This document shows, one piece after another, positions 46,794 to 62,968 of a stretch of DNA of 64,000 bases. Within the stretch, counting starts at the first letter, position 1; each line of letters starts with the position of its first letter. The translations under genes and the position numbers were made by a program. Source of the DNA: an uncultured Clostridia bacterium (GTDB lineage: Bacteria > Bacillota > Clostridia > Oscillospirales > Acutalibacteraceae); contig CALEJD010000040.1 of assembly GCA_937898195.1 (NCBI GenBank), positions 24,052 to 88,051 on the forward strand. Reading direction: 5' to 3'. Under the pieces are notes generated by a model. The model did not search any database. It was not told the origin of the DNA and saw nothing but the letters and a program-made list of their open reading frames with translations.

Positions 46794-47637
46794 TATCTTT
46801 TATTTTACTCATGGAATCACCATTATTTACATATATTTCCACGGCGTAGTCTTGGATGTTTTGGAACGCAGTGGCATCATACGTTAACCTACCGTGTACT
46901 TTCCATTTGGGGTCGCCCCGCAGAAGCATCCGCTCTTCTCTCACATCTTCATCTGCATCAATGTAAATTACCATAGGAATTTTCTTCCCATCATAATGTT
47001 TGAGCAGATACTCCACTCCATCAACATCAATGACATACAAATCTGCTTCGTCAATCTGTTCTCTGGTTGCTCCATATAATTCGCCGTTGTAATTGGTAAC
47101 AGCACACATGTTTTCCAATTCATTAAATTTCTTCTCTGAAACAAAGATGTGCGCATCGTCAAACACATTGCGTCTTTGTCTTGTGGTGTATGATTTGACT
47201 TCCTTCAACCCATAGGTTTCTCGCATGTATCTGCACAACATAGATTTGCCGCTCCCAGATTTACCTACGATTAAAATAATATAATCACTCATTGTTCTTT
47301 TCGTCCCTAATTTCTTTTGATACTCTTTTTCCTTTTCTAATGAAGCAATCTCTTTCTTTCTTGATAACAACACACGGATACTTTCGTCTTGTAAGTATCC
47401 ATACACTTTTCTTAATGGGTAGCCGTGCTTGAGCATATCTTTCGCTTTGAATTCTACAAACATTGGCACGTTGCTCAAATCACAATACCTTGATACTTTA
47501 AGACAATTATTTTCTAATTCTTTTTTCTTCCTACGTTTTGCTATCCAATCTTGAAGTTGAATGAATCCAAATGCCATGGTGCCAAATGTGACGATAATCG
47601 CAACACATAGCAACAAAATTGTTGTAAACTTAACCAT
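46750..47637 (-). CDS. guanylate-kinase-like nucleotide kinase with an N-terminal transmembrane anchor
   Basis: TM segment FTTILLLCVAIIVTFGTMAFGFI; P-loop GKSGSGKS followed by SYTTRQRR. Confidence 0.6.
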   Translation of the reverse strand: MVKFTTILLLCVAIIVTFGTMAFGFIQLQDWIAKRRKKKELENNCLKVSRYCDLSNVPMFVEFKAKDMLKHGYPLRKVYGYLQDESIRVLLSRKKEIASLEKEKEYQKKLGTKRTMSDYIILIVGKSGSGKSMLCRYMRETYGLKEVKSYTTRQRRNVFDDAHIFVSEKKFNELENMCAVTNYNGELYGATREQIDEADLYVIDVDGVEYLLKHYDGKKIPMVIYIDADEDVREERMLLRGDPKWKVHGRLTYDATAFQNIQDYAVEIYVNNGDSMSKIKDIAREIYGKYFKKEE

Positions 47638-48467
47638 CAGAACACCTCAATATCCATCGTGTCTCTAACTACCTTCTGTTCATTCCTAATCTTGGCGTAA
47701 CGTGTAGTAACACTGATATCGCTATGCCCCATACATAATTGAATTCTTTCAAGTGGCACATTGTGGTCAAGCATGGACGTTGCCCACAGATGTCTAAAGG
47801 AATGGTTGTGAACATTCTTATCAACTCCAGCCTTTTTAGCGGCGAGTTTAAGAGACTTATTAATCCCTTCCTTCGTCATCGGTGTGCCATTATTACTAAC
47901 AAATAAGTTGTCGATGCAATTATTGCGGATGGTCATATAATGGTTAATATACTCCATGGTCTTGTCATTAATATGTACCATCCTGCGCTTGCCACCCTTG
48001 CCAAGAATATTTACATCATTACCATTAAAGTCATCAACCTTTATGCTAATCAGTTCAGATACACGCATACCAGTAGAAGCCAAGGTTGCCATGATTGCCT
48101 TGGTTCTAACACCATTAGCCGTACACCCTACAGCATTAAGCATCATGTTTACGTCTTCCGATGTTAGCGTTGGCTCTACTTTGTTGGTAATGCGTGGGGG
48201 TTTTAGTTTCTTGGTGGGATTGGATTCCAGCACATCAATGTCAAAAAGAAAATCATAGTATCTTTTCACAGACCCTATACGCCTTGCGATGGTTGCGCTG
48301 GACAGACCTTCGTTGGTCATACAGTTCTTCCACTCAAGCAGGTCTGCGAGTGTGATTTCTTCTTCTGGTTTGTTGACATAGTTAAGCATAGATGTGATGT
48401 CTGCGCCATAACTTGCCTTCGTATTCTCATTATTGAATGTTCCAAGATAAAGATTTAATTTATTCAT
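47637..48467 (-). CDS. tyrosine recombinase (XerC/D / phage integrase family)
   Basis: R in GMRVSEL, HSFRHLW, GHSDISVTTRYAK (R-H-R-H/Y catalytic pattern). Confidence 0.8.
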   Translation of the reverse strand: MNKLNLYLGTFNNENTKASYGADITSMLNYVNKPEEEITLADLLEWKNCMTNEGLSSATIARRIGSVKRYYDFLFDIDVLESNPTKKLKPPRITNKVEPTLTSEDVNMMLNAVGCTANGVRTKAIMATLASTGMRVSELISIKVDDFNGNDVNILGKGGKRRMVHINDKTMEYINHYMTIRNNCIDNLFVSNNGTPMTKEGINKSLKLAAKKAGVDKNVHNHSFRHLWATSMLDHNVPLERIQLCMGHSDISVTTRYAKIRNEQKVVRDTMDIEVF

Positions 48468-48516: not shown

Positions 48517-48545
48517 ATTATACTACTCTTATGACGAAATGTCAA
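48517..48545 (-). promoter_or_regulatory. consensus promoter directly upstream of the recombinase gene
   Basis: TTGACA-17 nt-TATAAT; the -35 box lies inside the 3' end of the methylase gene. Confidence 0.65.
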
Positions 48546-49290
48546 GCGCTTTCTCTATTCTTTCTTTCGAAATATTAAAATATTGTTCTTCTAATTCTAT
48601 CCCTATAAAATCTCGATTTGTATTTATGCATGCTATTCCTGTTGAGCCAGACCCCATGCAATTATCAAGAACAAGATTCTTTTCTTCTGTATAAGTTTTA
48701 ATTAAATACTCAAGTAATTCTGTTGGTTTTTGTGTTGGGTGCAATCTCTGTCTTGGTGGCACTGGTGGAAATTTTATAATACTGCTTGGATGTTTATCTG
48801 TGTATGTATTATACTGTTTTTTCATATTATTATTATGCAACATTTTGCATGTATTCAATCCACCACCATTATAGACAGGCTTATCTCTTTGAATTTTTTG
48901 TGGATAATAAACCATAGATGTATCATTACTTGTATAGCATGCTTTACCATCACTAAACACACATATTAATTCATGTATTCTACCACATTGATAATTCATT
49001 ACTTGAAAATTACTTGGCTTTCCTTTATCCCAAATCCAATCGTATTTATAATCTTCTAAATTACTATATCTTAATGTAGTTGCAAATGGTTCATTAGCGA
49101 ATAAAACTATTGCATGTAATGGTTTAATGATTCTTTTATATTGTTCCCACAGAGCGTCAAATGGAATCACGCTATCCCACTTACAAGCAGTGCTCCCATA
49201 TGGTAGGTCACATAATATCATATCTATACATTGGTCTGGAATATCATTCATTAATTCGATACAGTCGCCATGATATATATTATATTTCAT
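48529..49290 (-). CDS. DNA methyltransferase, N6A/N4C beta class
   Basis: N-terminal ILCDLPYG (DPPY-type) and C-terminal DNCMGSGSTG (FxGxG-type). Confidence 0.8.
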   Translation of the reverse strand: MKYNIYHGDCIELMNDIPDQCIDMILCDLPYGSTACKWDSVIPFDALWEQYKRIIKPLHAIVLFANEPFATTLRYSNLEDYKYDWIWDKGKPSNFQVMNYQCGRIHELICVFSDGKACYTSNDTSMVYYPQKIQRDKPVYNGGGLNTCKMLHNNNMKKQYNTYTDKHPSSIIKFPPVPPRQRLHPTQKPTELLEYLIKTYTEEKNLVLDNCMGSGSTGIACINTNRDFIGIELEEQYFNISKERIEKALDISS

Positions 49291-49495
49291 TTAATACCCT
49301 CTCCACTTCTGATGTATGTTTAATCCAGTTTATCATTTCTTCTTCTGTATTGCCTGTAATCATCTTTTCATTATCCCATGCTTGACAATCTAAATATGAA
49401 TCAACAATGTCTAAAAGCATGTTATTATTGAACACATATCCCTTATATGTTAGATATTCTGAAAATATATTTTTTATCGTTCTATTGTTATCCAT
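49280..49495 (-). CDS. hypothetical protein
   Basis: Lies between the two methylase paralogs. Confidence 0.55.
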   Translation of the reverse strand: MDNNRTIKNIFSEYLTYKGYVFNNNMLLDIVDSYLDCQAWDNEKMITGNTEEEMINWIKHTSEVERVLNEI

Positions 49496-49497
49496 TA

Positions 49498-50244
49498 TTA
49501 CTTCTTTTGATTACTTATATTTTCTATCCTTTCTTTTGCGATATTAAAATACCCTTCGTTTAATTCCATCCCAATAAATTTACGATTTGTATTTATACAA
49601 GCAACACCTGTGGAGCCAGAACCCATGCAGTTATCAAGAACTACATCGTTTTCATTTGTAAATGTTTTAATTAGATTTTCCAATAATTTAATTGGCTTCT
49701 GAGTTGGATGCAAGTTGCTTGTCAAGCAATCACGTTGATATTTCCAGACTTGCGTCGGGTATCGCCAACCAGTATCTTTATATTCAAATACCCTCTTTTC
49801 TTGTTGGTCAGTTAGCGTGCCTAATTTGCCATTCTTTACTTTATTACTCCTTGGCTTACCATCATACTTTATCATTTGCGGGTTATATGTTGGTTGCTTA
49901 TTATAAAATATTGATATTGTTTCTATTGTTTTACCAACACGCTTTTTAACTTGATTGACGTTAGTTAATCTTTCTTTTTCCCAATATATATCATATTTAT
50001 ACCACGACAGATTTGAACATCGCAATAAACTGCTAAATGGTTCTTGTCCAAATAATGCAATGACACCATTAGACTTAATAATACGCACATATTCCTTCCA
50101 TAAATCATTAAATGGGATAATTGTGTCCCATTTACATGCAGTTGTACCATAAGGCAAATCACACAATATCATATCTACGCTACCACTTGGAATGTCCTGC
50201 ATTAATTCTATGCAATCGCCTTCATGTATTTCAAAATCACTCAC
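49498..50244 (-). CDS. DNA methyltransferase, N6A/N4C beta class (paralog of 48529..49290)
   Basis: Motifs ILCDLPYGTTACKWD and LDNCMGSGSTG. Confidence 0.8.
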   Translation of the reverse strand: MSDFEIHEGDCIELMQDIPSGSVDMILCDLPYGTTACKWDTIIPFNDLWKEYVRIIKSNGVIALFGQEPFSSLLRCSNLSWYKYDIYWEKERLTNVNQVKKRVGKTIETISIFYNKQPTYNPQMIKYDGKPRSNKVKNGKLGTLTDQQEKRVFEYKDTGWRYPTQVWKYQRDCLTSNLHPTQKPIKLLENLIKTFTNENDVVLDNCMGSGSTGVACINTNRKFIGMELNEGYFNIAKERIENISNQKK

Positions 50245-50265: not shown

Positions 50266-51077
50266 TTAAATACTTTGTAATCTGTTTTTTATAATCTCAC
50301 AATAATCCTCACTCAATTCTATACCAACCCATCTTCTGTTAGTTAGAGTAGCCATTTTTGCAGTCGTTCCACTTCCCATAAATGGGTCTAAAATTATATC
50401 GTTTTCGTTAGACCAAGAAAGTATATGGTCTTTTACTAAACTTTCTGGGAATGGTGCTGGATGCTTTTTAGAAAACTCGTCATGACCTGTAGTTTGGTTA
50501 TATTTCCATATATTGAACCTTCTTCCCATTTTTTTAGTCTCTATCTTACGATACTTTCTACCTTCGTCTGCTGTATATTTATCTCTATTCGTGTTTACGA
50601 CACTATTGCCAACAACTTTATTTTCTCTGTCATATATTAAATTATACGTTGATATTTTTCCTTTAGAAAGTACAAACATATATTCAAAATTTTGAATATA
50701 ACATTTATTACTTCCACATGCACCCACACCATTTTTTTCATATATCATAGTATCGAGTACATTCCAACCAATTTCTTTGAAATATAACGCTTGCTTGAAG
50801 GAAGTTAAAGATTCACAACCGTCTTTTGTTGCATCACCCACAATCCAAACACAAGCCCCCCCGTCTTGGTTACTCTTAACAATTCTTTAGCAACATTTTC
50901 AAAATCAAAAGAATATCCTTCTTTGTATTTTCTTAAATCGTCGTATGGTGGACTTGTAACAGTCAAATCAATACATTCATCATCTATGTCTCTTAATTTC
51001 TTAACACAATCTCCTTGAAGCAAGAATCCAGACTTGTCTTTATAATATGATGTTTTATATAATTCTCTTAAATTCAT
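50266..51077 (-). pseudogene. SPPY-type DNA methyltransferase interrupted by a frameshift at a G7 tract (C7 at 50856..50862 on the plus strand)
   Basis: N-terminal ORF (TSPPYDD...RVTKTGG) and C-terminal ORF (ACVWIVGDATKDG...PFMGSGTT) join into one ~270-aa methylase if the run has 8 G. Confidence 0.75.
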
Positions 51078-51317: not shown

Positions 51318-51629
51318 TTATCTCCTTGCGTTTATACGTTCTATAACATCTTCTGCGGTAAGAAATCCAACAACAGTATCGCCATCTGTTTTCGGGTCAA
51401 CAATGTTGCCATAAATCTCCAGAAGTCCATCTTCATATCCATAAGAACCGTACTGACACATAGCGTCCCATTCACATTCCTTGCCGTCTTTAGGTACACA
51501 AATTTGATGTCTGTCCATAATATATACTGACAAATCTTCATCACATTCCCACCGATGACTAACTTCGTATCTCTCGTATGGTATGTTGTTTTCTTTTAGA
51601 TACACTTCCAGTTTATCGAGTTCGCTCAT
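51318..51629 (-). CDS. hypothetical protein
   Basis: Lies within the operon. Confidence 0.6.
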   Translation of the reverse strand: MSELDKLEVYLKENNIPYERYEVSHRWECDEDLSVYIMDRHQICVPKDGKECEWDAMCQYGSYGYEDGLLEIYGNIVDPKTDGDTVVGFLTAEDVIERINARR

Positions 51630-52291
51630 TATCTATTCTCCTTTAGCCATTTACAATATTCATCCCAATATCCATGCTTGTGTAGCCAGTTATTAGCCTT
51701 TAACATTTCCAACTTCATTTGTGCTTTAGCGTTTGCTCCACAATGAGATTCAATAAATTCATCTTGCGACCTTGCAATCTGCAAACCTTTGAGTTCACCC
51801 CTTGCTTTTTTATATTTGTCCATATCCTTCTCCGGTATGGTATAGGGGGCTTTAGGTAGGTTCCGATTACTAAATGGGGATATGGATGCGCCACTCGTTT
51901 TCAATTTTATAATTGGGGCAAGCGCATCTAAATGCTTGGCATCAAATGTGAAGTACACTTCCCAATCCATAATATCCACATCGTTTACGAATCCAGCGTT
52001 ATGCAATTCATCCACAATTTTATCAACAGATTTACCCCCAACCTTACCAATTACGGACTCGTAATAACTACGCAGGACATTGGTTCCTAATTTCAGTTTT
52101 GGACAGTAGCATGCCAATTCGCTACCAACGCCATGCTTGATTTCAATTCCAGAGCGTCCACTCAAGTAAAAATCTCCAAATGATTCTTCAAGGTTGCCAT
52201 CTTCGTCTCGCACAAAATCATTTGTGCTCTGGTCATAATGCGCCTTAACCCTATACTTCCCTTTATAATGCTGTGCCAGATAGTTATCCAT
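51629..52291 (-). CDS. hypothetical protein
   Basis: ATG 52291 lies 8 nt after AAGGTGA (the track ORF starts at TTG 52330). Confidence 0.6.
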   Translation of the reverse strand: MDNYLAQHYKGKYRVKAHYDQSTNDFVRDEDGNLEESFGDFYLSGRSGIEIKHGVGSELACYCPKLKLGTNVLRSYYESVIGKVGGKSVDKIVDELHNAGFVNDVDIMDWEVYFTFDAKHLDALAPIIKLKTSGASISPFSNRNLPKAPYTIPEKDMDKYKKARGELKGLQIARSQDEFIESHCGANAKAQMKLEMLKANNWLHKHGYWDEYCKWLKENR

Positions 52292-52400
52292 TTTTCTTAT
52301 CACCTTCTTTTGTGGTACTGGAGAACACAATGCGTTTCTCCCCAGCCTTCTTGGGTCTGCCTACAAAGGCATAATTCGATTTCGATTTTGATTTTTCCAT
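52284..52400 (-). CDS. 38-aa basic protein with a GRPKK (AT-hook-like) motif; first ORF of the long leftward operon
   Basis: SD GGAGGT 7 nt upstream; directly downstream of the promoter at 52427..52455. Confidence 0.45.
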   Translation of the reverse strand: MEKSKSKSNYAFVGRPKKAGEKRIVFSSTTKEGDKKNG

Positions 52401-52426
52401 ATCGCTTACCTCCTTCGCTTGCCTAT

Positions 52427-52455
52427 ATTATACCACAAGTTGTGTCGCATGTCAA
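52427..52455 (-). promoter_or_regulatory. perfect consensus promoter heading the replication module
   Basis: TTGACA-tgcgacacaacttgtgg-TATAAT. Confidence 0.75.
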
Positions 52456-52466
52456 CAACTTTTGCA

Positions 52467-52620
52467 GGGGGTGGTTATCCAAATTTCATTTTGAAAACAA
52501 AGTCGCATACTAAAAATCTGATTTCAATTTTCTTTTTTCAACCGGGTGGTTATCCAAATATATATGGCTGAATACGATTTTAATTTAGGATTTTGATTTC
52601 AATTTTCATTTTACCAAAAA
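52467..52620. repeat. repeat block 1: two GGGTGGTTATCCAAAT boxes plus TGATTTCAATTTTC units
   Basis: Boxes at 52467-52484 and 52544-52559; TGATTTCAATTTTC at about 52519 and about 52594; homologous to 61849..61990. Confidence 0.8.
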
Positions 52621-53112
52621 TTGGCACCACCTGCTACCATATACATATACCCTAATTCCTTTAGAAAAATTGAGATAATGATACCTATTTTCGATTTTAT
52701 ATACGATGTGGATACATTACTCATATAGTATATATCCATTCGTTATAACGTGAGTAACGTAACATATTATATTATGGTATATGCGTTATATATATAGATA
52801 TATGTATATACATAATGCATATTGATATGTTATATGTTACGCCGTTTTGCTTCATCGTAGCGTCGTGGCTCAACTCGATGCCAAGATATACATGTTCATT
52901 GACATTTGCGTTTAGATTATCTACGACACGTTCATAATTAAATTTATTTGCTATCGTTTTGGTGTAGGTTGGCTTTTGTTTATATATTATGCTTTCATTA
53001 AACACAATGTTAAAATTACAACGATACATTGAAGCAAAATCAACAACACGCTTTAATAAATCAAAATAACAAAACAAAATTTATTAACATAAAACGTGTT
53101 AATAAATCAAGA

Positions 53113-53150
53113 TAAGGTGTTTAGTTCTAACTTTCATACTAAACACCTTA
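53113..53150. terminator. perfect 13-bp stem hairpin (possible end of a leftward non-coding transcript)
   Basis: TAAGGTGTTTAGT-12 nt-ACTAAACACCTTA. Confidence 0.45.
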
Positions 53151-53455
53151 AACAAAATGGAGGTAAAAAAATGAAAAACACGCTTTCCTTCTTTTTATTT
53201 TTCAAAATCAATTTATAAAACAAAATTAATTTTGAATTTTGAAAATTGAATAATATTTTTGTGGGAGTTTTTGTTTTGCGCACTTTACCCCTTCGCTCGT
53301 CGCAAGCCTATATATTATGGGGGAAACTGATTGCGCGTACTTTACCCCTTTTCACACACCCTATACGCTTTCACACGCTAATGCGTTAATGCGCGTCGCA
53401 CTTTATCACGTTATCACGCTAATGCTTTAGCGAATGAAAGTGCATAATTATTCAC

Positions 53456-53530
53456 GAAGAACGTGCGTTTGCAAACATTTGTTCTTGCCGAAATCAGTCG
53501 CAAACATTCGTTCGCAAACGCACGTTCTTC
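53456..53530. repeat. perfect 17-bp inverted repeat with a 41-nt spacer
   Basis: GAAGAACGTGCGTTTGC ... GCAAACGCACGTTCTTC. Confidence 0.9.
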
Positions 53531-53752
53531 ACGTTCCCGGATACTTGTCAAAATTTTCCTGTAAATTTTTGACAAATTATTTTTTTGCATCTTGAGTGTT
53601 TGCGACTATAGATTCCAATTATCTGCCATTCCGTTCTTAAACATAACTTATTTGTTCAGATTGAACAAACAAGTTTTCTCCGTTTCTGATTCCAATTATC
53701 AGAACGTGAAATATTAAATTGTATTTTTTACTGTATCCTATTGACTATATAC

Positions 53753-53781
53753 ATTATACCACTTATTGATACTAAAGTCAA
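53753..53781 (-). promoter_or_regulatory. consensus promoter firing leftward into gene-free structured DNA
   Basis: TTGACT-17 nt-TATAAT with TGG. Confidence 0.6.
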
Positions 53782-53826
53782 GAGAAAATTTTATAAAACA
53801 TACAGAAAATATTTTTTTAAAAAATG

Positions 53827-53855
53827 TTGACAATAGATGCAAAGTATGGTATCAT
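53827..53855 (+). promoter_or_regulatory. rightward promoter, divergent from 53753..53781
   Basis: TTGACA-17 nt-TATCAT with TGG; followed by GGGGAAGTGTGAAGTGTAA and A17. Confidence 0.55.
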
Positions 53856-54121
53856 AAAAAGGGGAAGTGTGAAGTGTAAAAAAAAAAAAAAAAACGAATG
53901 GGAAACGATGGTATTTCTTATTCAAGATGCACGATTCTGTACAATATGCCCATCAGACGCTCTATTTTACGTTTTGGCGGGATTTATAATGTAAAGGATG
54001 TTTATATTGACTACCTATATAAAAGTCCATTAGAACGTAAATTAGGGCTTCCATATATTTCCAATTCAACAGAATCGGGACGCATGCTTTAATGCTTTAG
54101 TGTGATAAAGTGAATGTGGAT

Positions 54122-54158
54122 AAAAAAATGATGGTCTGTGTTAACCATCATTTTTTTT
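54122..54158. terminator. bidirectional rho-independent terminator
   Basis: A7-ATGATGGT-ctgtgtta-ACCATCAT-T8. Confidence 0.75.
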
Positions 54159-54163
54159 CTGTT

Positions 54164-54352
54164 TTATCTTTTGAGATTGTATTTTAACACCAAATCTTCG
54201 ATGTCCTCTTCTACCTCCATTCTGTTATCCGCACTTGACCAAAACTCATCATCTACATACGTTTCGTAGTGTTCCATTACTTTTCTAACCTCAATATGAT
54301 AAGCGAGCATTCTGTCATCGTACATTGTCATTCTATCTACTACGTTTTTCAT
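54164..54352 (-). CDS. 62-aa acidic early protein
   Basis: SD AGGAGGT; own promoter and terminator. Confidence 0.7.
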   Translation of the reverse strand: MKNVVDRMTMYDDRMLAYHIEVRKVMEHYETYVDDEFWSSADNRMEVEEDIEDLVLKYNLKR

Positions 54353-54393
54353 CTTATACCTCCTGTATGTTCTGATGTCTTTAACTTGATTAC

Positions 54394-54422
54394 ACTATAC
54401 CATACCATCGGTATGTTGTCAA
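54394..54422 (-). promoter_or_regulatory. early consensus promoter
   Basis: TTGACA-17 nt-TATAGT with TGG. Confidence 0.7.
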
Positions 54423-54737
54423 GTATTTTTTTTATAAATTTTTCTGCAAAATATTTTGCACCATAATTGCCATGTTTACATAGAACATCGTACACAAAAT
54501 ACTTACTACCATTTCTTTCCAATAAATCGGTAAATCGAAAAATAATAGCTTATAGGCATATGCTTCTGTTTTTCCTATCGTTTGAAATAGATTGTATAAG
54601 TACAAAAATTTCATCGAGAACAGGGGAAATCGTCGATTTAAGCGATTTTTTAAAAGAAAAGGTATTTTAGTACGCCAAACCCCCGAAACCCCCAAAACTT
54701 TAGCACGTTAAAACTTTAATGTGATAAAGTTTTGGCA

Positions 54738-54768
54738 ATAAAAAAATCGGATTAATACATCCGATTTT
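54738..54768 (-). terminator. rho-independent terminator (leftward)
   Basis: AAATCGGAT-taataca-ATCCGATTT followed by T7 on the minus strand. Confidence 0.65.
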
Positions 54769-54953
54769 CCATAATAAATATAATTCTATCCGCTAATTCA
54801 TTCATCTGTTTTTCTGTAATATGCTTCCATTTATAGCACCAATCAATTCTATTGCATATCCAATCAATGCTTTTGGTTTTGTAGTTGTATACACAATTTT
54901 ATTACTTTATCACTTTAACGCACTAAAGTTAAGGGGTAAAAATAAAAGAACAT

Positions 54954-55148
54954 TTAATGTTCTTTTATCTCTTCAAACCCAATGAAATTGATTATTGAAT
55001 ATTTCACTACATCATTATTATATCTAATAAAATTGAATGTATCATTTACCTGTTTCAGCGTTTCACCGTCAACGTGTTTAATAATTGGTGAACCAATTAA
55101 CTTACCATTGTTGTCTTTTCTGAAATAACTATAAGTGATTCTAAACAT
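54954..55148 (-). CDS. 64-aa early protein
   Basis: SD GGAGGT. Confidence 0.65.
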   Translation of the reverse strand: MFRITYSYFRKDNNGKLIGSPIIKHVDGETLKQVNDTFNFIRYNNDVVKYSIINFIGFEEIKEH

Positions 55149-55250
55149 AATATACCTCCATAAAGCTCTAATTTTAGTTTTAAACGTGTCTTATATGCTC
55201 ATTGATAGTTTATATTATCTTTATATAAAACACGCTTAAATCGCCATTTT

Positions 55251-55811
55251 TTACCTTGATTCCATATAACTATATCTTGGCGTACTTGTCAAAATCTGAC
55301 AATTACTTTTTTCTGCGTCAAATCTCAAATCGCTTCCGCATTTTCCACATCTATAGTTATGGTAATTTTTGGTAAATTTACTTGCACGTTCTCTGATAAT
55401 AACTTGCCCACATCCTTCACATACAAATACATAATTATGCTTCTTTTCTCTTGTTGGTTTTTCAATTCCAAAATCTGAATATGAATTTGTGCGTGTGATT
55501 GTATACTTTGTGTTGCGTGTTACATAATCCGCCAATCTTTTCCATTCATTTTTATGCGTCATGCAATCCTTACATGTGTGCAATACCTCATGGATAATTG
55601 TACTCATAATCGCAACATCATTAGCATTGTCATCAAAGATAAGATAGTTAAAATTAAGTGAATATGTATTTGTTACGTTATTTCTTCTACATTGTCCGAA
55701 TCTGTTTTTAGCACGATAGTTCAATTTGACTTCAACGATGTTACCATACTCAATATTTAAGTCATCAAGAATTTCAAGTGCACTATGATACATTTCCATA
55801 TAGTTTTTCAT
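55251..55811 (-). CDS. SprT-like zinc metalloprotease with a C-terminal Zn ribbon
   Basis: RFGQC..., HEVLH (HExxH), CEGCG...CGKCG; ATG 55811 after GGAGGT lies downstream of the promoter, so the longer track ORF is unlikely. Confidence 0.65.
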   Translation of the reverse strand: MKNYMEMYHSALEILDDLNIEYGNIVEVKLNYRAKNRFGQCRRNNVTNTYSLNFNYLIFDDNANDVAIMSTIIHEVLHTCKDCMTHKNEWKRLADYVTRNTKYTITRTNSYSDFGIEKPTREKKHNYVFVCEGCGQVIIRERASKFTKNYHNYRCGKCGSDLRFDAEKSNCQILTSTPRYSYMESR

Positions 55812-55852
55812 TTCATACCTCCGATAATGTATGTGCTTTATCTTACGATAAC

Positions 55853-55881
55853 AATATATCATACATCGTTATATTTGTCAA
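55853..55881 (-). promoter_or_regulatory. early consensus promoter
   Basis: TTGACA-17 nt-TATATT. Confidence 0.65.
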
Positions 55882-55924
55882 GTTCTTTTTTAAGTACAAT
55901 TCTTTAGTGCTTTAGTGTGATAAA

Positions 55925-56116
55925 TTACCTTACATCCTCCATTTCCATATGTGGATATTTCTCTTTAAGCATTAACATAATTTCATGGTATGTTGCAAAA
56001 TAATCTTTTTCCTCAAGATAAGAATAACTAAACAGAAATTCATCCATGCTTAACGTCATAAAATCATGCATTTTGTTCATGTCATCCGCAAATGTCCAAT
56101 TACTAATATCCTTCAT
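55925..56116 (-). CDS. 63-aa acidic early protein
   Basis: SD AGGAGGT. Confidence 0.7.
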   Translation of the reverse strand: MKDISNWTFADDMNKMHDFMTLSMDEFLFSYSYLEEKDYFATYHEIMLMLKEKYPHMEMEDVR

Positions 56117-56156
56117 GTTAACCTCCTATAATGTTACACTATCAATTTACAATATC

Positions 56157-56185
56157 ATATTATCATACATTGGTTTATTTGTCAA
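56157..56185 (-). promoter_or_regulatory. early consensus promoter
   Basis: TTGACA-17 nt-TAATAT. Confidence 0.65.
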
Positions 56186-56230
56186 GTAAAATGTGCAAAA
56201 TATTTTTATAAATATTTTTCTAAAAACTAC

Positions 56231-56259
56231 TTGACAAACGTTGAAAAATATGTTAATCT
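56231..56259 (+). promoter_or_regulatory. rightward promoter, divergent from 56157..56185
   Basis: TTGACA-17 nt-TAATCT; followed by GGGGAAGTCTAAGTCTAA and an A run. Confidence 0.5.
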
Positions 56260-56295
56260 AATAGGGGAAGTCTAAGTCTAATAAAAAAAAGATAT

Positions 56296-56324
56296 AAAAA
56301 AAACGGTCTGAATTTTCAGACCGT
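56296..56324 (-). terminator. rho-independent terminator (leftward)
   Basis: ACGGTCTG-aattttc-CAGACCGT followed by T8 on the minus strand. Confidence 0.7.
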
Positions 56325-56332
56325 TCCTATAT

Positions 56333-56527
56333 TTACAACAAATCAGTTTCCATTTCCCTAATATAAAATTCATCCATATCATAAAGTTTTTTAATAAGTT
56401 CTAATTTTTCCCTTGCTCTTTTTTCGCTTGCGTATGCCATAATCATACTACTGGTTATAACATTGTCTTTAGATTTTGTTTGTAATGATATAACACCAAA
56501 TTTATCACATATTGCATATACTACCAT
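56333..56527 (-). CDS. 64-aa early protein
   Basis: SD GGAGGT. Confidence 0.65.
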   Translation of the reverse strand: MVVYAICDKFGVISLQTKSKDNVITSSMIMAYASEKRAREKLELIKKLYDMDEFYIREMETDLL

Positions 56528-56549
56528 AATTTACCTCCAAATATTTATG

Positions 56550-56993
56550 TCAATTTTTTTCTTCAACCATTTCTTTAATGTCATCAATTGTAATGGTTTG
56601 ATTTTTATAATTTTCAAAGAGTGCCTTGCAATCATCTACTGTAGAACAAATATTGTTGCAAATACAAGTGTCGCAATCGTTACAAAAATCTTCAAAGTCA
56701 TTTTCAAGTTCTAAACTTTCAATTGATTCATTCAAAGTTTCTTCCATTTCATCTTCGGGCAAATTTCCATTTTCTGTCAATCCAATATTCTCATAAATAT
56801 AGTCACGTTCAAACCATATAAAATCGTTTACTTCCGTATCAGTCGGAACATTATCACAAAACACCATCTCAAGAAAATCCATAAATTCATTTTCTTTGTT
56901 TGCGTTCTGAATGTCTGCAATAGTATCTATTGCTCCACTCCATACCATATCAGCAAGTTCATAAAACCCATTGATTTCTTTTCTAACTTCCAT
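56550..56993 (-). CDS. 147-aa strongly acidic early protein
   Basis: SD GGAGGT; D/E-rich with a CNDCDTCICNNIC cluster. Confidence 0.7.
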   Translation of the reverse strand: MEVRKEINGFYELADMVWSGAIDTIADIQNANKENEFMDFLEMVFCDNVPTDTEVNDFIWFERDYIYENIGLTENGNLPEDEMEETLNESIESLELENDFEDFCNDCDTCICNNICSTVDDCKALFENYKNQTITIDDIKEMVEEKN

Positions 56994-57031
56994 GTTGTTA
57001 CCTCCAATTATATAACCTTTAACATAGTTAT

Positions 57032-57060
57032 ACTATATCATGCTTTATTGTCATTGTCAA
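57032..57060 (-). promoter_or_regulatory. early consensus promoter
   Basis: TTGACA-17 nt-TATAGT. Confidence 0.7.
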
Positions 57061-57067
57061 GTATTTT

Positions 57068-57295
57068 TTAATAATAATTTTTTGGTGCGTTATCAATTTC
57101 TCTGCGAGTAAATCCCATTTCCAAAAGTTTCTTAATCATGGTTTCTTTTTTAACATACCACCTTAATTCAATATCATGGTATGTAGAATTATATACTTGA
57201 TTTGACGGTCTTGTGTATGAATTCATTTTATATAATTCTAATTCATAACTATTATTCATTGATTTTAATTTATATCCATAATATGTTCTTCTCAT
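57068..57295 (-). CDS. 75-aa early protein
   Basis: ATG 57295 lies 6 nt after GAGGTG. Confidence 0.6.
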   Translation of the reverse strand: MRRTYYGYKLKSMNNSYELELYKMNSYTRPSNQVYNSTYHDIELRWYVKKETMIKKLLEMGFTRREIDNAPKNYY

Positions 57296-57308
57296 TTTAT
57301 GCACCTCA

Positions 57309-57578
57309 TTATTCCATCATTTCATTAATGTAAATCGTTTCTCTGTCATCATGTTTAAGCCATGATACCCATTCACATTCTACTTTTATATTACGTCTGT
57401 TAAGCACTTCTTTCCACATGTCGTTAATGAACATATAAAAATCATTTAATGCTTCTGCTTTTGCGTTATCTTTATTATTAGAGATTACGATTTCACTATA
57501 CAATTTTTCGTTTCTAATTCCACTAAATATTGTATTTGTTCTTCCGTAAATTGTTACATAATATTTCTTCATGCTCAT
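57309..57578 (-). CDS. 89-aa early protein
   Basis: SD GGAGGT. Confidence 0.65.
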   Translation of the reverse strand: MSMKKYYVTIYGRTNTIFSGIRNEKLYSEIVISNNKDNAKAEALNDFYMFINDMWKEVLNRRNIKVECEWVSWLKHDDRETIYINEMME

Positions 57579-57592
57579 TGTCTATACCTCCA

Positions 57593-57841
57593 TCAATCCC
57601 ATCCTAACATTTCATATATTTCATCCATGTTAAATGGTTTACTATTTACATCGTGCTTCGGTGTATCTAATATCTTGTCAATTCTCGCTTGTTCTGTTTT
57701 GTGTTGCCATAACAATGGTTCGTTACCTTTTACCATATTTTCTGTGACTGTATATCTTTTTCCCCTATATTCATATTCAAGATATACGGTTTCCCTGTCG
57801 TATCCTGTGCCATACCATTTATCAATAAATTTTGCCTTCAT
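57593..57841 (-). CDS. 82-aa early protein
   Basis: SD GGGAGGT. Confidence 0.65.
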   Translation of the reverse strand: MKAKFIDKWYGTGYDRETVYLEYEYRGKRYTVTENMVKGNEPLLWQHKTEQARIDKILDTPKHDVNSKPFNMDEIYEMLGWD

Positions 57842-57869
57842 TCTTTCAACCTCCCTTATTTACAATACC

Positions 57870-57898
57870 ACTATACCATATTTCAATCCCATTGTCAA
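57870..57898 (-). promoter_or_regulatory. early consensus promoter
   Basis: TTGACA-17 nt-TATAGT with TGG. Confidence 0.7.
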
Positions 57899-58290
57899 CA
57901 ACTTTTTTTCAACAAAATAAAATAAAAAAAACTACCATTTTTTCAATGTTTTTTACCACTATTTTATAAAATTACGTTCGGCAAATCGCAAATTAGAGCC
58001 TCGCAAAAATCAAAAGAATGTTGGAATTTCAACGATTATAGCCATTCTTTAGCACTTTAGTGTAATTTTGCCATATAGTTATACCTTGAATTTATGTATT
58101 TTTATGCAAATTTCATACATAAATCGTTATAAATGTTGAAATTGCAAGGGTTTCGACGTTTTTACCTATCGTACAACAAGCCTAAAATAAGCCTAAAATC
58201 GTCGATTTAAGCGTTTTTCCCAAAATATGGTATGAATACTCATGTATATTATACATAAGGGTTGGCACGATACTTGCATAGCCAAATTTG

Positions 58291-58546
58291 CTTTAATGCT
58301 TTAGAATACAAAAGTAAAATTTTACTTTTGTACTTTATAATTTGAATACTTTAATTTGCTAAAGTGTAACATTATAATCCACTTTTATGTTGTAAAGCAT
58401 TAAAGCATTATCGCTTTAATATGGTAAAGTTATAAAATATTAACGTCTTAATACATTAAAATATCATTGCTTTAATATGGTAAAGTCTTGTGTATTGAAT
58501 ATTGTATACACATTTTTAGCACATTAATACTTTAATGCGTTAAAGT
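58291..58546. repeat. gene-free cluster of ACTTTA-N6-TAAAGT palindromes, a 22-bp perfect palindrome and a TGTATACA palindrome
   Basis: Sites at 58348, 58413, 58469 and 58529; CAAAAGTAAAATTTTACTTTTG at 58309-58330; TGTATACA at 58503-58510. Confidence 0.85.
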
Positions 58547-58556
58547 TTTTGAACAT

Positions 58557-58594
58557 GAAAAAAGGTTACCAATATTTTACACGGTAACCTTTTC
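58557..58594 (-). terminator. rho-independent terminator (leftward)
   Basis: AAAGGTTACC-12 nt-GGTAACCTTT followed by a T run on the minus strand. Confidence 0.7.
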
Positions 58595-58629
58595 CAATTT
58601 ATTTATAGGAGGTTTTAGAGAATTTCTGA

Positions 58630-59193
58630 TTAATAATCATATTGTACTATTCTACCATCCCAAAGTTCATAATAGTAACCATCTTCAATAATCGCTTCGC
58701 CAAGTCCTTCATAATCAATATAATTTGTTAACCAAGATTCAATATTACAACATTCATCAACATAATTTTCTGCAACGTCATACGCATCATTCCATACATA
58801 CGATATAATACTCATATCAAAATAATCATTGTTGTAATTGTTAAGCACTTCTTCAACATCTTCTTCGTTAAGTGCGTATTCATCATGCATCTTTTCAATT
58901 TCAGATTCACGCACATATGATTCAAATTCTTCATGTTCACCATTTGCAATCATATCAGCAACATCGCTAAACGTATCATCGCCATCAGTATTTTTCATAC
59001 GATTAAACACATCTTTCGTAACCCATGTTTCAACATCATCAAAATCTTCATCAATACGCACACTACAACGTGCATTTGATACAATAGGTTTACCACTATA
59101 ATCTAAATGAATTATGCCATCACTATTAAGTTCAATATATCTGCATCCATCGCATTCATCTTTAATTCTATAAAGGATAATGTACTTACTCAT
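58630..59193 (-). CDS. ardA: ArdA-like anti-restriction protein (acidic DNA-mimic family)
   Basis: C-terminus YDVAENYVDE...LTNYIDYEGLGEAIIEDGYYYELWDGRIVQY parallels Tn916 Orf18 ArdA YDVARYYIEE...LQNYIDYQAYGRDLDLSGTF...GIFEI (recalled from memory); very acidic. Confidence 0.55.
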   Translation of the reverse strand: MSKYIILYRIKDECDGCRYIELNSDGIIHLDYSGKPIVSNARCSVRIDEDFDDVETWVTKDVFNRMKNTDGDDTFSDVADMIANGEHEEFESYVRESEIEKMHDEYALNEEDVEEVLNNYNNDYFDMSIISYVWNDAYDVAENYVDECCNIESWLTNYIDYEGLGEAIIEDGYYYELWDGRIVQYDY

Positions 59194-59207
59194 ATTTATA
59201 CCTCCAA

Positions 59208-59750
59208 TTACGCACGTTCTTCAACTTCGTTAAGCAAATCTTCAACTTCAGTTTCGCAAAACTCGCCAATACTTGTATCGTTATCCCAATCCCAAACATT
59301 ATAGCACTCTGCCATAATATCTATATCACAACAATATTTACCATCGGCAATGGTTTTATATTGCATACGAGATTCAAGTTCAAACCATTCTGTTTCATCG
59401 TCAAATCTTACTAAAAATCTATCCGTATAATTTGCTCTTACATCACCATATCTATGTACCATAATCGCCATATATGTATATCCATTTATTCCCAATTCTG
59501 CTACATCAATATCGTGGTCTATATTAGCATTCCAATTATAAGTATTCCATCTATGGGCTGCATGTTCTACAATCCAATCAATTGACTTTCCTGTAGTTTC
59601 AATTTCATAATCCTTTAATTCATAAAGCAATTCAAGAACATTGCCACAAATTACATCATCTTTAATTTCACCGTTCGGCTCATATATCCAAGCCTTACAT
59701 TCTTTATTGACTTCCTTAATATCCTTAATTACTGCGTCCAATCTTGTCAT
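59208..59750 (-). CDS. 180-aa acidic early protein
   Basis: ATG 59750 lies 8 nt after GGAGGT (the track starts at TTG 59765). Confidence 0.65.
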   Translation of the reverse strand: MTRLDAVIKDIKEVNKECKAWIYEPNGEIKDDVICGNVLELLYELKDYEIETTGKSIDWIVEHAAHRWNTYNWNANIDHDIDVAELGINGYTYMAIMVHRYGDVRANYTDRFLVRFDDETEWFELESRMQYKTIADGKYCCDIDIMAECYNVWDWDNDTSIGEFCETEVEDLLNEVEERA

Positions 59751-59793
59751 ATTCATAACCTCCAATTATGTTATAACTTTATCTTACAATAAT

Positions 59794-59822
59794 ACTATAA
59801 CATATCTTTAATCATTTATCAA
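59794..59822 (-). promoter_or_regulatory. early promoter
   Basis: TTGATA-17 nt-TATAGT. Confidence 0.6.
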
Positions 59823-59961
59823 GTGTTTTTTTTAACAAATAATCAATATCCGACAATTTACTATTCATCGCCAATTGCAAATCAATACCATTGATTCCAA
59901 TTTTTTCCAATTCCCTTTTTATCTCGTTTTGTTTTGTTATTGGTAGTTCTGCAATATACAT
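59812..59961 (-). CDS. 49-aa early protein
   Basis: Weak SD AGGAAA; starts right after the upstream stop. Confidence 0.4.
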   Translation of the reverse strand: MYIAELPITKQNEIKRELEKIGINGIDLQLAMNSKLSDIDYLLKKTLDK

Positions 59962-59962
59962 T

Positions 59963-60109
59963 TTATTTATTTCCTAACTTTATTCTTATAATTTTATGCT
60001 CCAAAATCTTTAGTTCATCTTTTTGATGGTTATATTCCATTTCAATTCTTTTGCCTTGCTTTAATTTCTGTGTAATTACCTCTAATGCTTCCTTATTAAT
60101 ATATTCCAT
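59963..60109 (-). CDS. 48-aa early protein
   Basis: SD GGGAGGT 5 nt upstream. Confidence 0.55.
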   Translation of the reverse strand: MEYINKEALEVITQKLKQGKRIEMEYNHQKDELKILEHKIIRIKLGNK

Positions 60110-60126
60110 TTATTACCTCCCAAATT

Positions 60127-60549
60127 TTACCATTCTTCATCTTCTTCATCTTCCAAAAGTGCCCAATGAATACTTCCATCACAATCCGCATCCATATAGT
60201 CCTCAATAGATTCATCCCATAAATTGTTCATGTCAAATGTTCTATAAAGGAAATTTGCAAGCTCCAATGGGTTTTTATAATAGTGTCTTTCAAGTTCCTT
60301 TGTCGGGCGCATACCACCATCAGCATAAACATAAATTGTAATGAGATTATCATTATCCACCATTAGTTTAATATATCCCATTTCATTTTCATGGAACACC
60401 ATAAACTCACAAACACGCTCGTTACAATTCCAGTCAAAATCTGTACCATCATTACCATTCATATAGTAAATTTTTCCATCAAGTTCATTTCCGATAATTG
60501 GATATTCTTCCCTAACTTCATTAATAATGTTCAAAATCTGTTTAAGCAT
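60127..60549 (-). CDS. 140-aa acidic early protein (ends EDEEDEEW)
   Basis: SD AGGAGGT. Confidence 0.7.
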   Translation of the reverse strand: MLKQILNIINEVREEYPIIGNELDGKIYYMNGNDGTDFDWNCNERVCEFMVFHENEMGYIKLMVDNDNLITIYVYADGGMRPTKELERHYYKNPLELANFLYRTFDMNNLWDESIEDYMDADCDGSIHWALLEDEEDEEW

Positions 60550-60587
60550 ATGTTACCTCCTATTACATAACTTCTTTTAACACATAT

Positions 60588-60616
60588 ACTATATCATACA
60601 TTGGTTATATTGTCAA
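60588..60616 (-). promoter_or_regulatory. early consensus promoter
   Basis: TTGACA-17 nt-TATAGT. Confidence 0.7.
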
Positions 60617-60625
60617 GTATTTTTT

Positions 60626-60922
60626 TTAGATTTTGTTAAAATCTTCATCATACCAATTTCCATCTTTATCCAATGTATATTCCGATACCTTCCAAAATTC
60701 CCTTACGCAATATTCAAGTTCTTCAATACTCTTCAAATCATCAAAATGTTCATAAGCACAAATCGTATATACATATGTTGTTAGGCAATTCAATTTTGCT
60801 TCTGCATTAAGTTCGTCATATGTGAGAAATGTTTCTTCTCCCATATCATTCAATTCATCTTCAATTAATGTAATTACATTACTTGACAAACACATGTGCT
60901 CTATTACATCGCCTAAATTCAT
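60626..60922 (-). CDS. 98-aa acidic early protein
   Basis: ATG 60922 lies 6 nt after GGAGGA. Confidence 0.65.
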   Translation of the reverse strand: MNLGDVIEHMCLSSNVITLIEDELNDMGEETFLTYDELNAEAKLNCLTTYVYTICAYEHFDDLKSIEELEYCVREFWKVSEYTLDKDGNWYDEDFNKI

Positions 60923-60924
60923 CC

Positions 60925-61122
60925 TTATTCCTCCATCCAATCATACCATGAGCGCACTTCATCTTCATGCAATCCCATATCAACATAAATTCCTATAAGT
61001 TCTTCACGTTCCTTAATATTTCTATAATTGTAATAATTATCCAAATGTTCACCAATCCAATTGCACATATTAGTTAACAAGTTTTCAATTTCTGCATTTG
61101 TATAGTCATTATGCCAAGTCAT
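60925..61122 (-). CDS. 65-aa acidic early protein
   Basis: SD AGGAGGT. Confidence 0.65.
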   Translation of the reverse strand: MTWHNDYTNAEIENLLTNMCNWIGEHLDNYYNYRNIKEREELIGIYVDMGLHEDEVRSWYDWMEE

Positions 61123-61125
61123 AAT

Positions 61126-61341: not shown

Positions 61342-61352
61342 ATCGTACCTCC

Positions 61353-61445: not shown

Positions 61446-61491
61446 ATTCAACCTCCTACCATATCAATTATTATTTTTCAATTTCAACGTA

Positions 61492-62965: not shown

Positions 62966-62968
62966 TGT

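Follow-up and report, generated by a model that had tools for sequence, protein, structure and literature searches.

The locus at positions 53080-53781 of a 64,000-nucleotide (nt) stretch of contig CALEJD010000040.1 raises a simple question: what does a near-consensus promoter do when no gene follows it? The whole stretch is called the window below, all coordinates refer to it, and its gene content makes it a portion of a large phage genome. An earlier note, made from the sequence alone, had listed at this locus a leftward promoter, several repeats and hairpins and no gene, and had taken the layout for a structured regulatory RNA or an RNA-primed origin. All the features that it listed are present where it had placed them. 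The promoter, the non-coding nature of the locus and a structured part were borne out, and the terminal hairpin is a probable terminator. On the evidence given below, the locus is very probably a conserved non-coding transcription unit immediately upstream of the replication-gene block of the phage, which encodes a tyrosine recombinase, a YorH-like protein, a DnaB-like helicase, a primase and Pol III alpha. The stretch that is poor in genes extends further than the earlier note had it (~52330-54164) and lies between small early genes and the block leading into the replication genes.

The locus is kept in relatives and has no conserved reading frame

Related loci were fetched for several homologues of the 220-amino-acid (aa) protein encoded directly downstream, and a scan was made for a conserved 24-nt pattern. 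About 12 distinct lineages were recovered, from uncultured gut and rumen phages of ~100 kb; they are labelled L001-L092. A gene-poor gap of 1.4-2.4 kb was found at the same position in all relatives examined. DNA identity to the window is 86.5% across 53891-51600 in L001-L003 and 70-76% in blocks in L005 and L006, and in more distant lineages the similarity is confined to islands. The module stands upstream of the recombinase-YorH-DnaB block even where recombinase identity has fallen to 38-39%.

On both strands of 53080-53781, no open reading frame (ORF) is kept beyond the 86%-identical L001 among the relatives examined, and none thus qualifies as protein-coding. Hidden small genes might nevertheless be proposed, such as a 58-codon ORF at 53590-53414, a 49-codon GTG ORF at 53283-53134 (minus strand) or mini-ORFs on the plus strand, since ORFs of 40-58 codons are present. 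The earlier statement that no ORF is preceded by a Shine-Dalgarno (SD) sequence also needs amendment: the 49-codon GTG ORF lies behind AAGGGG and a 15-codon plus-strand ORF behind GGAGGT (53159-53164). Neither of the two is conserved, however. Single-base indels relative to L001 disrupt the frame of the GTG ORF, whose start reads GCG in many relatives, and the ATG of the 15-codon ORF is ATA in L005. With lost start codons, 1-nt indels and stop codons in relatives, a hidden small gene is extremely improbable. The search for a conserved coding frame in relatives, which the earlier note had named as a possible refutation, thus favours a non-coding element, and the non-coding status of the stretch holds in all relatives examined.

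Wider searches added little to this set. Neither megablast nor blastn matched 52400-54400 to any of 50,697 phage records, and an exact-protein look-up and an exact 22-mer scan likewise returned nothing. A search with the flanking protein found no related locus in IMG/VR, where a relaxed motif scan returned only the already known L014. An anchor-motif scan of 185,579 species-representative genomes, made in search of a host, gave 29 matches, all of which were chance by an nhmmer check.

P1 is a conserved promoter that drives no gene

The promoters that surround the locus are as follows (T1 is the terminator described below).

53753-53781, minus strand: P1, a sigma-A-type promoter TTGACT-17-TGgTATAAT, score 11/12, with TG extension and a start predicted near 53746
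53827-53855, plus strand: divergent promoter TTGACA-17-TATCAT, facing a bidirectional terminator at 54122-54157
54422..54394, minus strand: near-perfect, TG-extended promoter of the preceding gene
52455..52427, minus strand: P3, a perfect TTGACA-17-TGnTATAAT (12/12) that drives the following genes, ~650 bp past T1

P1 has the TTGACA-like -35 element, the 17-nt spacer and the TGnTATAAT of an extended -10 promoter of sigma-A. Promoter-like sites as a class are not enriched in the region (21 found, 21.1 expected), and the case for P1 therefore rests on phylogeny: its -35 and -10 elements are kept in 12 lineages while the spacer between them has almost fully diverged, and the TGn extension is retained in 11 of the 12. 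Judged by this footprint, P1 is a genuine and conserved promoter, in agreement with the consensus leftward promoter TTGACT-17-TATAAT proposed earlier. P1 and P3 are co-directional and bracket the non-coding stretch. Four near-perfect TG-extended promoters were found in 51500-55500, and P1 is the sole promoter of this class that drives no gene.

The transcript would begin with a structured RNA domain

The structured elements near the 5' end of the putative P1 transcript are listed here.

53537-53712, minus strand: conserved structured RNA domain, consisting of hairpin HP1, a three-tier helix capped by hairpin HP2, and a single-stranded tail UGCAAAAAAUU
53684-53704, minus strand: HP1, stem UUCUGAU/AUCAGAA and loop AAUUGGA, the first copy of GATTCCAATTATC
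53610-53624, minus strand: HP2, stem AGAU/AUCU and loop AAUUGGA, the second copy of GATTCCAATTATC
53545-53575, minus strand: HP3, the TTGTCAAAA inverted repeat, which folds with 9+3 bp and whose UUUACAGG centre is conserved
53630-53672, minus strand: window-specific insertion of ~42 nt with the TTTGTTCA dyad, forming a 14-bp hairpin

The structured domain measures ~130 nt and begins ~45 nt after the predicted P1 start, within a 5' part of ~180 nt of the putative transcript. The GATTCCAATTATC copies at 53611 and 53688, noted before as direct repeats, are 100% identical, and in minus-strand sense both fold into hairpins whose loop is conserved and whose stems covary. In every relative the two hairpins stand at fixed offsets from the invariant TCGCAAACAC and keep the loop core (A)AUUGG(A). 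The stems, on the other hand, are replaced: eight unrelated complementary stems were found for HP1 (UUCUGAU, CAAUUUGCA, CCUAA, UUUCAAU, UCAAUUAUU, CGAUCAA, CAAUCAA and UCUG), and those of HP2 read AGAU, GAACGU, AACAU, AAAUU, AAGUU, CAAAA and UAGAU. The 17 stem variants together hold 98 Watson-Crick pairs and 6 G·U pairs, with no A·C pair and no mismatch. When the same hairpin finder was applied to random T[TC]GG sites as a control, stems of at least 5, 7 and 9 bp were obtained at 17%, 3.9% and 1% of them, which makes the probability of the whole series arising by chance negligible. With nine relatives as input, RNAalifold further found HP2 to be enclosed by the helices GYGG/YCGC and GGUG/CACY, the 3' strands of which lie in the invariant TCGCAAACAC (53596-53605), and this explains the invariance of this "anchor" sequence. 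An antisense promoter inside the anchor was considered and rejected, as its "spacer" GTGTTTGCGA is invariant and better explained by the RNA helix.

A covariance model (R1) was then built from the same nine relatives, with the window left out. It matched the window at 53537-53712 on the minus strand with 90.5 bits (E 1e-15), and it gave exactly one match, always in sense orientation, in each of the 14 genomes matched. In the R1-guided alignment, standard pairs occupy 90.6% of cells, as against 35-54% when the partners were slid by 1-3 columns; 8 pairs and 26 cells are changed on both sides (at most 2 and 5 when slid), and the covariation score is 0.346 (at most 0.119 when slid). None of 500 shuffles reached the observed percentage paired or the covariation score. 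This alignment is fitted to the model and so leans towards structure, and the independent stem tables agree with it. Each of the four pairs of HP2 has changed on both sides and is formed in 100% of the sequences. G·U is conserved at two pairs (12-13 of 14 sequences), and one outer-helix pair alternates between C-G and U·G in a ratio of 7:7; since a conserved G·U would be A·C on the opposite strand, the functional strand is indicated to be that of the P1 transcript. On the covariation, the 5' domain is a conserved, strand-specific structured RNA, and the covariation check that had been proposed for the locus thus came out for a structured non-coding element.

Plain MAFFT alignments gave RNAalifold energies of only -2.9 and -4.3 kcal/mol, because differences in loop length shift the stem register; the structure-anchored analysis and the covariance model were needed for this reason. 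The 647-nt putative transcript folds with z = -8.0 and its 5' 207 nt with z = -3.8, values that partly reflect DNA-level palindromes. The proposed Rfam search matched no family: the whole window gave no hit in Rfam 15 at gathering thresholds, and permissive E-values over 52300-54400 returned only miRNA-hairpin noise (18-23 bits against thresholds of 50-100).

Two further structures noted before proved less general. The inverted repeat at about 53545-53575 is present as HP3, and its arms change from GUC/GAC to ACC/GGU in L005, L009 and L023, but its support is inconsistent, since the arms no longer pair in L001 and are in another register in L019, L050 and L090. The TTTGTTCA dyad (53651-53669) does form its 14-bp hairpin but belongs to the ~42-nt insertion, which is absent from L001, L005 and all other relatives; it is thus lineage-specific and not a conserved structure. 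The stem of this insertion, AACTTGTTTGTTCA, is similar to that of the L090 terminator, a hint that the hairpin may be a small mobile element.

A predicted LexA operator cluster overlaps a putative second promoter

Downstream of the RNA domain the sequence takes a different character.

53456-53530: four predicted LexA (SOS) boxes GAACnnnnGTTT, all exact matches, at 53459-70 (plus strand), 53473-84 (minus strand), 53502-13 (minus strand) and 53516-27 (minus strand)
53447-53475, minus strand: putative promoter P2, TTTGCA-17-AATAAT, 9/12, weak alone and overlapped by LexA boxes 3 and 4
53424-53443: degenerate CTTTA-N6-TAAAG palindrome with one mismatch, just downstream of P2

The consensus GAAC-N4-GTT(T/C) is the clostridial LexA consensus used to define the SOS regulon of C. 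difficile (PMC4234289). Five matches to GAACnnnnGTTY were found in the 64 kb (3.35 expected), four of them within 70 bp at this locus, arranged as two abutting pairs ~80 bp past the structured RNA domain. The minus strand from 53530 to 53456 contains AGAACGTGCGTTTGC, CGAACGAATGTTTGC and AGAACAAATGTTTGC, and the opposite strand contains AGAACGTGCGTTTGC again. The perfect 17-bp inverted repeat, previously described with AATGTTTGC repeats in its loop and taken for RNA structure, is present inside 28-nt arms (53456-53483 and 53503-53530) but is better explained as four LexA operators, a reading that accounts for the sequence of both arms and of the "loop repeats". The change that disrupts this pairing in L001 lies within a box, in the N4 spacer to which LexA is indifferent, and the outermost pair changes in a compensatory manner. 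Most relatives examined carry one to four LexA boxes at the equivalent place, varying in number and exact position. Judged from its sequence, 53456-53530 is a predicted cluster of four clostridial-type LexA operators. The fifth box of the window (62931-62942) is flanked by the inverted, DnaA-box-like TTATCCATA and TGTGGATAA (62943 and 62969).

The -10 region of P2 aligns with an (A)TGTATAAATATGCAC block that is conserved at that position in relatives, where CTTTA-N6-TAAAG palindromes and/or further LexA boxes follow directly; as predicted sites, the block and what follows it form a classical operator arrangement. One to five copies of the palindrome stand at the position downstream of P2 in relatives. 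In the window it has 19 perfect copies (1.7 expected), all in early intergenic regions, and may represent the operator family of a phage repressor, by analogy with other phages. The 16-bp copies spread over 54095-63853, nearly always with a spacer of 6 nt, and cluster in gaps between early genes; 58349-58545 alone has four of them, and 62445-63853 about ten.

Such sites could in principle account for the locus as a DNA-level operator array, in which LexA, a palindrome-binding repressor and others would control P1, the rightward promoter, P2 and P3 while the transcript itself would be functionless. The LexA boxes, the CTTTA-N6-TAAAG palindromes and the TGGAAAAT repeats are indeed DNA-type motifs that keep their order and not their exact position, and operators alone explain the 17-bp inverted repeat. 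HP1, HP2 and the outer helices behave differently, with variable compensating arms around a conserved asymmetric centre, and their conserved G·U pairs, A·C on the other strand, are the signature of a single-stranded nucleic acid and not of the site of a dimeric DNA-binding protein. We consider a pure operator array very unlikely.

Oriented modules and an AT-rich tract precede a predicted terminator

The remainder of the putative transcript holds three further elements.

53262-53349, minus strand: two oriented modules GGGGUAAAGURCG-N12-13-CCC(C), listed earlier as CGCACTTTACC units, with a third copy at 62717-62727
53180-53260: AT-rich tract flanked by TAAAGYGCG-type motifs, with AAAGCGTGTT following at ~53175-53184
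53100-53150, minus strand: T1, predicted intrinsic terminator with a perfect 13-bp stem (arms 53113-53125 and 53138-53150), then AUCUUGAUUUAUU, and preceded by a conserved UUUUUUUACCUCC

The three CGCACTTTAYC units described before are present (GCGCACTTTACCCCTT-type units at 53278, 53335 and 53396), as is the copy at 62717; the window holds 7 matches in all, where 1.66 are expected. On the minus strand they read GGGGTAAAGYGCG-N11-13-CCCC, that is, GGGTAAAGYGCG…CCCC modules, and these are strongly oriented, with 26 sense and 2 antisense copies in the window and relatives together; nearly all sense copies are non-coding, usually two per locus. The units are not consistently paired, however. A reading as hairpins was rejected because the GGGG/CCCC ends do not covary in L010, L012 and L019, and the modules are accordingly regarded as sequence modules. 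A reading as an SD sequence with a GTG start was also rejected, GCG standing for GTG in many relatives. The AT-rich tract is found in most lineages.

The 13-bp hairpin, suggested earlier as a possible terminator, is present, and its position is kept in L005 and L090, each with a T-run. Neither terminator scan flagged T1, owing to its interrupted U-tract (AUCUUGAUUUAUU) and 12-nt loop, and the criteria of the dedicated scan were too strict for it. In L005 the hairpin is maintained by compensatory changes and followed by a T-run (dG -16 kcal/mol), and in L090 an unrelated strong hairpin with a T-run takes its place; UUUUUUUACCUCC followed by a hairpin with a T-rich tail was thus seen in the window, L001, L005 and L090 lineages. 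The hairpin varies in sequence and not in place, as expected of a terminator, and its clearer counterparts in L005 and L090 speak for T1 as a predicted leftward intrinsic terminator.

A structured leader that ends at a terminator could also be a cis-acting antiterminator. The twin-hairpin domain, alone or with a phage protein, would then modify RNA polymerase so that it passes T1 and subsequent signals and reaches the replication genes, with LexA gating entry. The position of the domain ~45 nt past the start, its strict sense orientation and single occurrence per genome, and its conserved-loop hairpins with covarying stems (the boxB pattern) fit this explanation, as does a downstream terminator in the window/L001, L005 and L090 lineages; in L019 and L050 the transcript would enter the next operon directly. 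Mobile elements of Firmicutes are known to carry RNA-based antiterminators (PMC8191782). The downstream genes argue otherwise. The 37-kb gene array on the minus strand (15600-52500) carries at least eight perfect or near-perfect TTGACA-17-TGnTATAAT promoters spaced 4-8 kb apart, an unusually regular series of consensus host-type promoters.

52455, 48545, 44304, 42055, 39356, 29047, 24873 and 21243, minus strand: gene-array promoters, perfect or near-perfect, TG-extended

P1 is therefore not needed for the expression of these genes. Terminators are not in excess in the array (13 found against 9.8 expected, and 12 against 10.6), and together the two observations weaken processive antitermination and favour a role for the act or the product of non-coding transcription. 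In addition, T1 is separated from the first gene by P3, a perfect promoter, while L009, L010, L012 and L092 have under strict criteria no clear terminator or only a hairpin in the operator region, and the domain has no likeness to any Rfam family. Antitermination is on balance unlikely.

A divergent unit could supply a partner RNA

On the other side of P1 lies a second unit without an evident gene.

53827-54160, plus strand: rightward unit with promoter TTGACA-17-TATCAT, an A17 tract, a long hairpin of ~95 nt and the terminator at 54122-54157

It would yield a non-coding RNA of ~300 nt, with a fold z-score of -4.3. The promoter and 5' end are conserved (GGGGA, then a tandem 6-7-mer and an A-run). 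A 64-codon ORF in the unit is kept in L005 with 78% aa identity and substitutions of 5:7:9 by codon position; distant copies contain stop codons. The hairpin is a member of a multi-copy family of ~110-nt early intergenic hairpins, with a weaker copy at 55165-55243 in the window and two to three copies each in L005, L011, L012, L016 and L090. The copy adjoining P1 carries AUAUAUUUCCAAUU/UUCCAAUU, which is complementary over 6-11 nt to the loops of HP1 and HP2. This loop-complementary tail was found in eight lineages (window, L005, L012, L016, L023, L014, L092 and L010), and the sequence complementarity is suggestive of an RNA-RNA contact between the tail and the AAUUGGA loops.

The P1 product might accordingly act as a trans-acting regulatory RNA or target, whose two loops would act as a sponge for a dimeric protein or else engage a complementary RNA by kissing. 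The partner would be the divergent rightward RNA, its tail AUAUAUUUCCAAUU being complementary to both loops, in a switch of the type of P1 c4/ant, P4 CI or ColE1 RNA I/II. Besides the P1-adjacent hairpin copy with UUCCAAUU in eight lineages, it is in keeping with this proposal that the rightward unit has its own conserved promoter and terminator and acquires stop codons in distant relatives, and that T1 would make the P1 product a discrete RNA. The comparison of lineages is less favourable: L001 lacks the complementary part and yet keeps both hairpins, and the loops of L019 and L050 differ (GUUGGAA, UAAGUCGGU) with no matching change in the rightward element. The loop-complementary motif is also partly sequestered in a small predicted hairpin, and the multi-copy hairpin family may be merely terminator-like. 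A trans-acting RNA is hence, like antitermination, an unlikely explanation. A sponge for CsrA was rejected, since the HP1 loops of L009, L023 and L019 do not retain GGA. A composite RNA switch for phage replication, in which the twin AAUUGGA loops of a P1 primer or activator RNA would be captured by the UUCCAAUU tail of the divergent RNA with LexA adding a DNA-damage input, is quite unlikely. If true, it would be an origin under joint RNA and SOS control in a ~100-kb phage of gut or rumen Clostridia, with ColE1- or P1-c4-like kissing by a partner that is not antisense.

A transcription-dependent origin or control unit is tentatively preferred

Phage genomes seldom have long non-coding regions that are conserved, and where they do, an origin or a master switch is usually the reason. 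R-loop or RNA-primed origins such as T4 oriF/oriG and ColE1 RNA II/RNA I consist of a promoter followed by an AT-rich unwinding element, with a long non-coding RNA that has 5' stem-loops. The present locus resembles them in its promoter with, in most lineages, a downstream AT-rich element, in the G-rich RNA segments ahead of that tract and in 5' stem-loops as a possible regulatory target. R-loops and RNase H processing are no part of the case here, where the likeness is one of sequence layout, and, unlike in ColE1, no cis-antisense promoter was found and the candidate partner RNA is divergent rather than antisense.

The closest documented layout is the origin of the lactococcal Ceduovirus (c2-type) phages, and a transcription-dependent origin or control unit is ranked first on this ground. 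In c2-type phages a non-coding stretch lies between the first two early promoters with no ribosome-binding site after PE1, and the structured non-coding PE1-T transcript is required for or implicated in transcription-mediated initiation (PMC7150918). The present locus shares with it a gene-free stretch flanked by two co-directional host-type promoters with no ribosome-binding site after the first, a structured non-coding transcript, and a layout that is kept while the sequence diverges between lineages (PMC7150918). Here the stretch extends between P1 (53781) and P3 (52455) and has no conserved ORF; its oriented modules adjoin the AT-rich tract, and its terminator is kept by compensation or by unrelated sequence, as would suit an origin. 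The two also differ: the c2 origin is ~0.6 kb long, lies between divergent early and late modules and has known origin activity, whereas the present locus has co-directional flanks and a gap of 1.4-2.4 kb, shows no sequence similarity to c2, is known from sequence, and adds the LexA operators and the twin-loop RNA domain.

By this analogy we infer, tentatively, an SOS-gated, transcription-dependent replication origin or replication-control unit. Non-coding transcription from P1 and P2 would run through the G-rich modules into the AT-rich tract, open or prime the DNA there and stop at T1. LexA, probably together with a palindrome-binding phage repressor, would restrain P2 and read-through until DNA damage occurs, and the 5' twin-loop domain, by binding a protein or a complementary RNA, would give regulation its handle.

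Several observations weigh against this proposal. No replication-initiation signal stands behind it, and no origin-binding or initiator protein was identified among the neighbouring proteins by Pfam, PHROGs or fold match. GC skew is uninformative, because the genes on both flanks run the same way. L019 and L050 lack the AT-rich tract and the terminator, the modules abutting the next promoter there, as well as the LexA boxes, and L005 has a single box. The conserved-loop hairpins fit a protein-binding or kissing regulatory RNA equally well. A DnaA-dependent origin was dropped: sites with no more than one mismatch number 40 in the window where 27.5 are expected, a mild excess, and those DnaA-box-like sites that are near the locus mostly belong to the GGGTGGTTATCC repeat.

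Comparison with regulatory systems of other phages

The antitermination RNAs (lambda nut boxB, HK022 put, EAR and conAn2) resemble the twin-loop domain in their promoter-proximal conserved-loop hairpins with covarying stems, in an action that would be restricted to cis and, in some lineages here, in the downstream terminators (PMC8191782). They differ in that there is no sequence or Rfam similarity, that two identical loops stand here in tandem, and that the downstream genes have their own strong promoters with no excess of terminators.

Host LexA operators in a phage control region are also a feature of the LexA-controlled promoters of GIL01 (P1 dinBoxes), CTXphi (PrstA) and coliphage 186 (p95); in GIL01 they lie in a control region upstream of replication or regulatory genes (PMC4551915). 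The present boxes, which match the Firmicute/clostridial consensus, number four and abut two by two, no protein gene is driven by the putative promoter they overlap, and LexA binding is predicted. The SPbeta element SPBRE is a short repeat scattered over intergenic promoter regions and belongs to the MrpR operator system (PMC10516654). The CTTTA-N6-TAAAG family is likened to it by distribution and not by sequence, and differs in being confined to 54-64 kb. An MrpR-like repressor was dropped as a candidate: the tyrosine recombinase, read by eye, keeps all the catalytic residues (R, K, HxxR, H and Y), so it is no obvious MrpR-type repressor. No Rfam family, phage record or characterised system matches the locus; its parts are of known kinds, and their combination and the RNA motif are new.

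The phage genome around the locus

Genes run on the plus strand over 22-15605 of the window and on the minus strand from 15638 to ~61827. The following functions were assigned.

32275-35436, minus strand: Pol III alpha (Pfam)
39609-40694, minus strand: DnaG-type primase (PHROGs; the Pfam DnaG match there is weak)
42060-43550, minus strand: DnaB-like helicase (Pfam)
47637-48467, minus strand: tyrosine recombinase (Pfam)
Minus strand: RecJ-like protein, RtcB and RecD-like helicase (Pfam)
Minus strand: ribonucleotide reductase with an intein, and several DNA methylases (Pfam)

The replication genes of this phage family are of SPbeta type, and among named phages LIBA6276 and LIBA2945, 130-kb phages of C. 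difficile, come closest by Pol III alpha (41% identity). Pfam and PHROGs identified no regulator, initiator or sigma factor among the neighbouring proteins, and a tRNA scan found none. The 220-aa protein directly downstream of the locus (51629-52291, minus strand) has 113 homologues, nearly all in metagenome assemblies and a few in NCBI records, on contigs of up to 97-106 kb, and no Pfam or PHROG match. Its AlphaFold model has a predicted local distance difference test (pLDDT) score of 92.4, with a best PDB match of E = 0.05 and a TM-score of ~0.16, and appears to represent an uncharacterised fold. The first ORF past P3 (52284-52400, minus strand) encodes a very basic 38-aa peptide, MEKSKSKSNYAFVGRPKKAGEKR…, whose GRP core resembles an AT-hook. 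This ORF runs into the beginning of the 220-aa gene and is called as a gene in several relatives (L003, L004, L005 and L007).

The large subunit of the ribonucleotide reductase (17996-20992, minus strand) is split by the intein, which has an HNH endonuclease domain. At 50266-51077 on the minus strand, overlapping ORFs of 90 and 191 aa resemble the N- and C-terminal halves of a single DNA methyltransferase, the first with an SPPY motif and the second with the C-terminal S-adenosylmethionine (AdoMet) region, which suggests that the gene is split or has suffered a frameshift; beside it, at 48529-50244, lie two N6/N4 methylases that are paralogous and intact.

A second shared module was seen at 52460-52620 and 61850-61990, each time with two copies of GGGTGGTTATCCRAWT and TGATTTCAATTTTCATTTT-type repeats. 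One set is upstream of P3 and the other between the first early promoter and the first early gene, and relatives have GGATA(A/T)CCACCC copies at the same places. Finally, 62000-64000 comprises 2 kb at 24-27% GC with no convincing genes, where CTTTAAT..ATTAAAG palindromes alternate with TTGTATACAA palindromes and one GGGTAAAGTGCG module is found (62717-62727); from its sequence this region, which also holds the fifth LexA box, may have a control or origin-like role of its own or mark a genome end.

Significance

The twin AAUUGGA hairpins within a three-tier helix constitute a new, covariation-backed RNA motif that is absent from Rfam. The locus also offers a lesson for the reading of sequence, as lists of "RNA structure" made in this way can mix RNA helices, protein operators and lineage-specific insertions. 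The dense cluster of predicted SOS operators points to DNA-damage control of a non-coding unit beside replication genes, and for this reason suggests that the phage family is temperate or plasmid-like rather than strictly lytic. For these otherwise uncharacterised large uncultured phages, the locus provides a concrete candidate for an origin or control region.

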